Below are positions 1-1,047 of a stretch of 64,000 nucleotides of DNA, one piece after another. The notes beneath the pieces were generated by a model. It did no database searches. It worked only from the letters and a program-made list of their open reading frames with translations, and was not told where the DNA came from. The first letter of the stretch is position 1, and the number at the start of each line of letters is the position of its first letter. The position numbers were made by a program, and so were the translations under genes. The stretch lies in assembly GCF_054482595.1 (NCBI RefSeq), contig NZ_CM137008.1. One strand, written 5' to 3'.

Positions 1-1047
1 ATCAGGTAGATGACTCATTCGCGTCATTATTTCGACAGAGAGCGGTTCACGGTCGAGCAACCCCAGAACAACAGGCTGGTAACCCAATTGCTGATCGGTC
101 AACTCCAGAATCTCATTGTCAGGCATATATCTCGCCATACTTGCAATCGTTTGTCCATCATTGCTATTAATAAGTTGTTTGCGTAGGTTAGCTGAAATTC
201 CTTTAAGCCTTGGGAGAGTTCGCATTATGGCAAGATCAAATGTCGCAATATCTCGTCCTTCAAATGCAGCAACGTTGCCTTCATCCAGCATTTGCAATTC
301 CTGCACTAACTCAGGAGAAGGCTTAGGGCGAAACAGCGCTTCTTTTTTCATCTGATTACAGACATTCCCTGCCATGCGAATATTGCTTCGCTTAAAAATT
401 TCTTTCAGAGCATCTTCATCATTTATTAGACCCCAATAATATGCATCAGGATTTATTATCTTCAACGCTTTTTTGACATTTTCAGTGTCATTTTTATCAC
501 TCGCACGGACCATGAATTCACTATTTGTCGAAGACGCAACAACAGGTGCAATTATGTCATTGATAAATATCCCACGCGCATTAATACTCCCCTTAATCGT
601 AGACGGATTATCGTAATATGAGTCGATAAATACCAGTCCACTTGCATTTATCGAACCGGTAATTAACAGTGGTGAATCCGTAACTATATTCGTTGCCGTC
701 ACGTTACCGAGAATAACCCATGGATTAGAAAGAGAGAAAGTGGAAATATTACCTTTGACTGTCAAATTGCCAAGAACAATCAATTTTTGATTACTCTCTA
801 TATTACCTTCTACCACTAAATCGCCACGATGCACTTTCCAGTCCGATGCAGATAAACCGAAGGGGACAAGATTCACGCTACTGTTGATAGCTTGTTCAAC
901 TTGTTGTTTATCTTCAGCGGTAGCCGCAGAAAAAAATGGTTCAATATCAACTGCATTTGCAACACATCGAAGTTCCGCCTGTACTGGAAGACTCAGCATA
1001 AACAGGGGGAGTAAACCTATCCAGCTGCAAATCCTGGGCTTAAACAT
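1..1047 (-). CDS. ydbD: YdbD-like secreted protein, 5' part only (349 codons; gene continues past window start)
   Basis: Open frame on minus strand from ATG at 1047 to window edge (not in ORF track because no stop in window). Begins MFKPRICSWIGLLPLFMLSLPVQAELR, a signal-peptide-like N-terminus; GGAG 5 nt upstream. Position after ydbC matches K-12 synteny. Confidence 0.6.
   Translation of the reverse strand, partial: MFKPRICSWIGLLPLFMLSLPVQAELRCVANAVDIEPFFSAATAEDKQQVEQAINSSVNLVPFGLSASDWKVHRGDLVVEGNIESNQKLIVLGNLTVKGNISTFSLSNPWVILGNVTATNIVTDSPLLITGSINASGLVFIDSYYDNPSTIKGSINARGIFINDIIAPVVASSTNSEFMVRASDKNDTENVKKALKIINPDAYYWGLINDEDALKEIFKRSNIRMAGNVCNQMKKEALFRPKPSPELVQELQMLDEGNVAAFEGRDIATFDLAIMRTLPRLKGISANLRKQLINSNDGQTIASMARYMPDNEILELTDQQLGYQPVVLGLLDREPLSVEIMTRMSHLPD

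Follow-up and report, generated by a model that had tools for sequence, protein, structure and literature searches.

An edge-cut reading frame is the 5' part of ydbD, a known Escherichia coli gene for a predicted exported protein of beta- and alpha-solenoid layout

The closest described counterpart of the reading frame analysed here is YdbD of Escherichia coli K-12 (b1407; RefSeq WP_000910026.1), which is annotated but uncharacterised, and the separate parts of its predicted structure can be compared with several known folds. Bactofilins (PF04519; BacA, 2n3d, and the Thermus protein, 6ria/6rib) are small cytoplasmic polymer-forming proteins with a right-handed triangular beta-solenoid core. 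Secreted right-handed beta-helices include Tapirin and putative adhesins (4wa0, 6n2b), the passenger of the autotransporter Pet (4om9) and the TPS domains of FHA (1rwr) and HxuA (4i84), whereas LRV/HEAT-like alpha-solenoids (PF01816 LRV, PF25591 LRV_2, PF02985 HEAT) consist of stacked helical hairpins.

Published data on the gene itself are scattered. Overexpression of sigma-E raised ydbD 3.9-fold in a study whose listing carries the gene as 'induced by methylglyoxal' (PMC2731931). Another study reported ydbD expression below 1 ppm and yet counted ydbD and ynbB among the genes that matter for fitness in minimal medium with glucose (PMC5053530). In addition, a YciT ChIP-exo peak was assigned to ydbD, its function being stated there as unknown (PMC8464067), and in E. 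coli B selection with iron(III) led to the sweep of a ydbD mutation (PMC12466345). The methylglyoxal link originates in a susceptibility screen of 2007 (Kim et al. 2007, PMID 17846588), as cited in PMC13313352. Most other papers that mention a 'ydbD' concern an unrelated Bacillus namesake gene.

Positions 1..1047 on the minus strand of the window, by which we mean the whole 64,000-nt stretch of DNA analysed here, are the 5' 45% of ydbD, cut off by the window edge. The frame starts with the ATG at 1047 and stays open through base 1, which makes 349 codons; its translation begins MFKPRICSWIGLLPLFMLSLPVQAELR, as the original prediction had quoted it, and it contains none of the stops on whose absence that prediction had staked itself. 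The remaining five frames of the same interval hold 7, 11, 24, 26 and 41 stops, and at the local GC content of 41%, with a stop probability of 0.065 per codon, the chance of an open run of 349 codons is about 6.5e-11. A TAA at 1065-1063 precedes the opening of the frame, and a Shine-Dalgarno-like GGAG can be read from the sequence at 1053..1056 on the minus strand, with a 5-nt spacer to the ATG. The frame is absent from the ORF list because the window edge cuts it before any stop is reached inside the window and the list leaves out frames running off the source sequence, which bears out the earlier remark that a track requiring stops would miss it. ORF callers of this kind overlook genes at window edges, and ydbD is here a normal annotated gene. 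Three plus-strand ORFs in the same region (10-186, 116-355 and 884-1066; 58-79 aa) were judged to be antisense chance ORFs.

That this frame is ydbD is practically beyond doubt. The 349 codons, the N-terminal part of a CDS of 768, are 100% identical at the DNA level to ydbD of NZ_CP019359 (WP_000476131.1) and start at the same ATG, and many complete E. coli genomes match positions 1-2200 of the window at 100% identity, their RefSeq annotation having ydbD ('DUF2773 domain-containing bactofilin') alongside pdxI and a BigA/YdbA-type autotransporter. Extension beyond the edge, which had been proposed as a check, was possible through the identical genome XH990, whose ydbD CDS has the same ATG and measures 2307 nt, that is 768 aa (WP_000476131.1); the fragment is an exact prefix of this protein, and judging from that gene ydbD runs 1260 nt past the left window edge. 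The proposed comparison with K-12 YdbD likewise held, as the fragment is identical to residues 1-349 of that protein at 334 of 349 positions (96%) with no gaps. The K-12 gene has the same flanks, the same start codon and the same length of 768 aa, and differs over the fragment by 15 amino acids, of which the signal peptide accounts for five (L2F, A4P, N6I, G8S and R11G). Near-identity to K-12 YdbD and the position between pdxI (ydbC) and ynbA both place the gene in the ydbD orthologue group. In XH990 the order is pdxI-ydbD-ynbABCD, with ynbA, ynbB, ynbC and ynbD on the ydbD strand, and MG1655 has the same order. The two neighbours that had been described as co-directional, ydbC and ydbA, are indeed on the same strand: the upstream neighbour pdxI, which we take to be the former ydbC, lies at 1111..1971 (minus strand; NCBIfam PRK10376, E = 1.2e-167, and RefSeq annotation), and the ORF list has a ydbA-type autotransporter at 2191-8124 (minus strand) as an intact ORF of 1977 aa, whereas the feature at the ydbA position of the MG1655 record is an incomplete pseudogene. 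ydbD is thus an already known gene and the confirmed finding remains an ordinary one; what the present analysis adds is small, namely a domain map and predicted-export evidence for an E. coli 'y-gene', a sparse beta-/alpha-solenoid family of predicted exported proteins, and some caution about names.

The intrinsic terminator of pdxI (1064..1103, minus strand) sits in the interval from the stop codon of pdxI to the start of ydbD. A terminator scan detected it as a 12-bp hairpin (1103-1074) with the U-tract UUUCUUUUUU after it (fold -18.6 kcal/mol, z = -2.6), and it ends some 10 nt short of the Shine-Dalgarno sequence of ydbD. An Rfam search of positions 1-2200 gave nothing near gathering score, and its sub-threshold leader-like match at 1064-1109 is the terminator hairpin. 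Within about 650 nt upstream of ydbD there is no sigma-E consensus (GGAACTT-N15-17-TCNAA) and no sigma-70 consensus, the best sigma-E-like sequence matching at an unconvincing 9 of 12 positions, so that the published effect of sigma-E on ydbD may be indirect. The reported expression below 1 ppm fits a gene with a terminator upstream and no promoter found, and read-through of the terminator or a promoter inside pdxI are the candidates for its transcription.

The original prediction had described the product as a signal-peptide-bearing secreted protein, and the first part of this description is supported, while the second needs narrowing. Residues 1-24 (MFKPRICSWIGLLPLFMLSLPVQA; 976..1047, minus strand) form a predicted Sec (type I) signal peptide, cleaved before ELRC, with K3 and R5 in its basic n-region, a hydrophobic core from I6 to L20 that carries no charge and reaches 2.3 on the Kyte-Doolittle scale, and V-Q-A, with its small residues at -3 and -1, ahead of E25. 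YdbD has no other TM-like segment; Cys28 lies outside any lipobox context, and the AlphaFold model leaves residues 1-26 disordered (pLDDT <50). The whole signal-peptide region, with A/V-Q-A/S and the following E-L-R-C, is conserved in E. coli and E. albertii. Scored by a crude rule set (n/h/c layout plus the -3/-1 rule; not SignalP), 29 of 44 family members have signal-peptide-like N-termini, against 7% of internal control windows. About one third of the relatives have no obvious signal peptide, partly through mis-called starts, and several look genuinely leaderless. In the closest non-Escherichia relative, P0039 (locus L004, 4962-5000), the start was apparently called 13 codons too far downstream, and translation from the upstream ATG restores a signal peptide, MLKLNILTGCIIMIGLNSFAQSA|QW. 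The N-termini of several other 'leaderless' relatives (P0041, P0086) resemble truncated signal peptides. On these sequence features, YdbD is probably exported across the inner membrane and periplasmic, which is a better description than 'secreted'.

A word-indexed homologue search returned no sequences outside Escherichia, and an exhaustive HMMER search extended the set to 172 representatives (E <= 0.001), of which some 40 are full-length (683-819 aa) and align nearly end to end at 20-31% identity. The full-length relatives of YdbD thus form a sparse family in which the layout is kept. An AlphaFold2 model from a 44-sequence alignment reached a mean pLDDT of 87.5 and a pTM of 0.76, and the N-terminal domain modelled alone reached 88.4 and 0.86, respectively. 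In the model, residues 70-181 (505..840, minus strand) fold into a right-handed three-sided beta-solenoid of about six rungs with the motif G-[DN]-L-x-V-x-G-N-I. Residues 188-768 are predicted to form an all-helical, HEAT/LRV-like alpha-solenoid of about 580 aa, in which helical hairpins would be stacked as in the known LRV/HEAT-like proteins; its start, residues 188-349, is encoded at 1..486 (minus strand) and was assigned from the AF2 model, Foldseek and the Pfam matches of relatives. Among 44 family members, LRV_2 is matched in 18, LRV in 14 and HEAT in 12; E. coli YdbD itself has no LRV, LRV_2 or HEAT match above the Pfam threshold and is matched by DUF2773 only (PF10971; aa 688-768, E = 1e-45, score 154 bits, gathering cut-off 25), in a region that lies outside the window and was therefore seen in the full-length protein and not in the 349-aa fragment. 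Searched with the whole model, Foldseek gave no more than generic matches to HEAT/ARM scaffolds, namely a designed repeat protein, transportin and the PP2A A subunit (E ~1e-4), and with TM-scores <= 0.33 this likeness is one of fold class only. Sequence searches of the PDB gave nothing significant, the best matches for the full protein and the N-terminal profile being an EF-P-like protein (E = 0.72) and MinC (E = 0.86), and NCBIfam holds no family model for YdbD and gave a chance-level MinC match only. Across Pfam, NCBIfam, the PDB sequence searches and the model, there was no sign in YdbD of a catalytic domain, a cofactor motif or an enzyme fold.

Here we propose that the YdbD precursor would take the Sec route and lose its signal peptide after A24 (VQA|ELR), and that the mature protein, present in small amounts, might bind partners or act as a scaffold in the periplasm without being an enzyme. 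Binding would then involve the alpha-solenoid, with its long surface for interactions, and the beta-solenoid as a second, rigid module. The gene would be expressed at a very low level and might serve an envelope-related process, as the published induction by sigma-E suggests. An edge-cut ydbD, with the predicted layout, export and scaffold role as its inferred mechanism, is very likely the best overall explanation of the frame; the specific functional reading, a Sec-exported periplasmic binding or scaffold protein in an envelope process, is put forward tentatively, as possible rather than probable. Six gene contexts were compared (pdxI/ynbA in E. coli and the loci L004, L006, L007, L008 and L009) and share no common neighbour, so that no functional partner can be proposed. 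Going further, we speculate that YdbD and its relatives of about 750-800 aa might constitute an undescribed exported family, in which a periplasmic beta-solenoid of bactofilin size is fused to a long HEAT/LRV alpha-solenoid, and that it might serve as a 'periskeletal' or envelope scaffold tied to the sigma-E response and not as a cytoplasmic cytoskeleton. A literature search found no description of such an exported architecture of beta-solenoid and HEAT/LRV alpha-solenoid, and we consider this wider idea unlikely.

The pattern of variation in E. coli could also be read as that of a horizontally acquired gene in decay, functionless in E. coli now and open only because the decay is recent. ydbD is AT-rich (GC 43%, GC3 40%) compared with pdxI (GC 53%) and the autotransporter (51%). 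Of 5426 complete E. coli genomes, 3963 contain the ydbD segment and 5252 match a query that includes pdxI, so that the ydbD segment is absent from about 27%, and at least two deletion classes account for genomes without it: in locus L002 ydbD alone is absent, pdxI is followed by ynbA and homology stops at window position 1018, and in locus L003 ydbD and ynbABCD are absent, pdxI abuts azoR and homology stops at 1175. Shortened alleles circulate as well. The 711-aa allele (P0012, 88 contigs) has lost aa 101-155 in frame (window 583-747) together with aa 376-377, and its 55-residue gap falls between the repeated beta-solenoid rungs KGNI and KGSI; further in-frame deletion alleles are of 682 aa (without aa 222-307) and 725 aa (without aa 194-236), and fusion or truncation variants exist too. 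Presence and absence together with these deletion alleles mark ydbD as an accessory gene. A further point in favour of decay is the expression below 1 ppm, and the dN/dS ratio is relatively high: between the fragment and K-12, 24 codons differ, 9 synonymously and 15 non-synonymously, which gives a dN/dS of 0.48, or 0.34 over the whole gene. However, both values are clearly below 1 and indicate that ydbD is coding and under purifying selection, although loosely constrained. Moreover, thousands of genomes carry the 768-aa frame undamaged, the E. albertii version is 80-89% identical, full-length relatives at 22-31% identity retain the architecture, and there are reports of a fitness effect in minimal glucose and of selective sweeps under iron(III). 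Decay without function thus seems improbable to us. The composition suggests a mosaic or horizontally acquired origin for the AT-rich genes ydbD, ynbB and ynbA. Of these neighbours, ynbB (43%) and ynbA (45%) are AT-rich like ydbD and ynbC has a GC content of 52% (locus L001, 3070-7047).

The RefSeq names 'DUF2773 domain-containing bactofilin' and 'polymer-forming cytoskeletal protein' imply a different protein, namely a true bactofilin that would be cytoplasmic and membrane-associated, would form filaments end to end, and in which the N-terminus would be an uncleaved membrane-targeting segment. The predicted beta-solenoid does have the right-handed triangular core of this family, and it superposes on nearly the whole core of BacA (2n3d; score 10.1, 2.4 Å over 97 of 103 residues) and of the Thermus bactofilin (6ria; score 9.6, 2.1 Å over 87 of 89 residues). 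The right-handed assignment is sound, since left-handed beta-helix enzymes match only at 11-12 Å rmsd. In the model, though, the likeness to bactofilins is no closer than that to beta-helices of secreted adhesins, namely Tapirin and putative adhesins (4wa0 and 6n2b; scores 10.9 and 10.8, 2.7-2.9 Å over 119 residues), the Pet passenger (4om9; 10.6, 4.6 Å over 120 residues) and the TPS domains of HxuA and FHA (4i84 and 1rwr; 10.2, 3.1 Å over 119 and 2.9 Å over 117 residues). YdbD has no detectable sequence similarity to these secreted proteins, and it differs from them in having no beta-barrel translocator, no TpsB partner nearby and a much shorter beta-helix. At the sequence level the bactofilin assignment fails: the Pfam Bactofilin model matches aa 78-141 weakly, with 15.8-17.8 bits where gathering requires 27.9, and among the 44 family members only one matches it at E <= 0.01. 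Bactofilin 6rib is the top Foldseek match of the beta-solenoid, but that match is not significant (E = 0.41), and a search of PDB sequences with the family profile brings up no bactofilin, MinC coming out best at E = 0.86. Furthermore, the N-terminus has the full n/h/c layout and an AxA-type site, conserved across distant relatives, and both ends of the modelled beta-solenoid continue into folded parts, an N-terminal helix and strands on one side and the 580-aa alpha-solenoid on the other, which we infer would hinder end-to-end contacts of the bactofilin kind. We therefore consider a true bactofilin very improbable and the RefSeq name weakly supported, and given the conserved export signal we file YdbD under a bactofilin-like beta-solenoid fold and not as a bactofilin.

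That YdbD is an enzyme of methylglyoxal detoxification or resistance, as suggested by the source name of cluster P0025 ('protein involved in detoxification of methylglyoxal'), by the literature link dating to 2007 and by the adjacent pdxI, whose product belongs to the aldo-keto reductase family and has weak similarity to the methylglyoxal reductase YdjG, is extremely unlikely, as the whole protein appears in the model as solenoid repeats with no enzyme fold, domain or cofactor motif, methylglyoxal is formed and detoxified in the cytoplasm whereas YdbD carries a predicted export signal, and the linkage to pdxI is not conserved in relatives. With no catalytic domain found, direct detoxification is hard to maintain, and for a periplasmic binding or scaffold protein, as we propose YdbD to be, an indirect envelope or permeability effect on methylglyoxal would be more plausible. 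Both labels in circulation, 'bactofilin' in RefSeq and the older 'methylglyoxal detoxification', are thus weakly founded.

Names also vary for the neighbouring ydbA-type gene, which RefSeq calls, depending on the genome, 'autotransporter domain-containing protein', 'BigA/YdbA N-terminal beta-barrel domain-containing protein' or 'pectate lyase-fold domain-containing protein'. In some RefSeq genomes the large gene at the ydbA position (L002, 8173-15182; L003, 8017-15026) is labelled 'EntS/YbdA MFS transporter', which, for a gene far over MFS length at the position of the autotransporter, looks like a mix-up of the names ydbA and ybdA.
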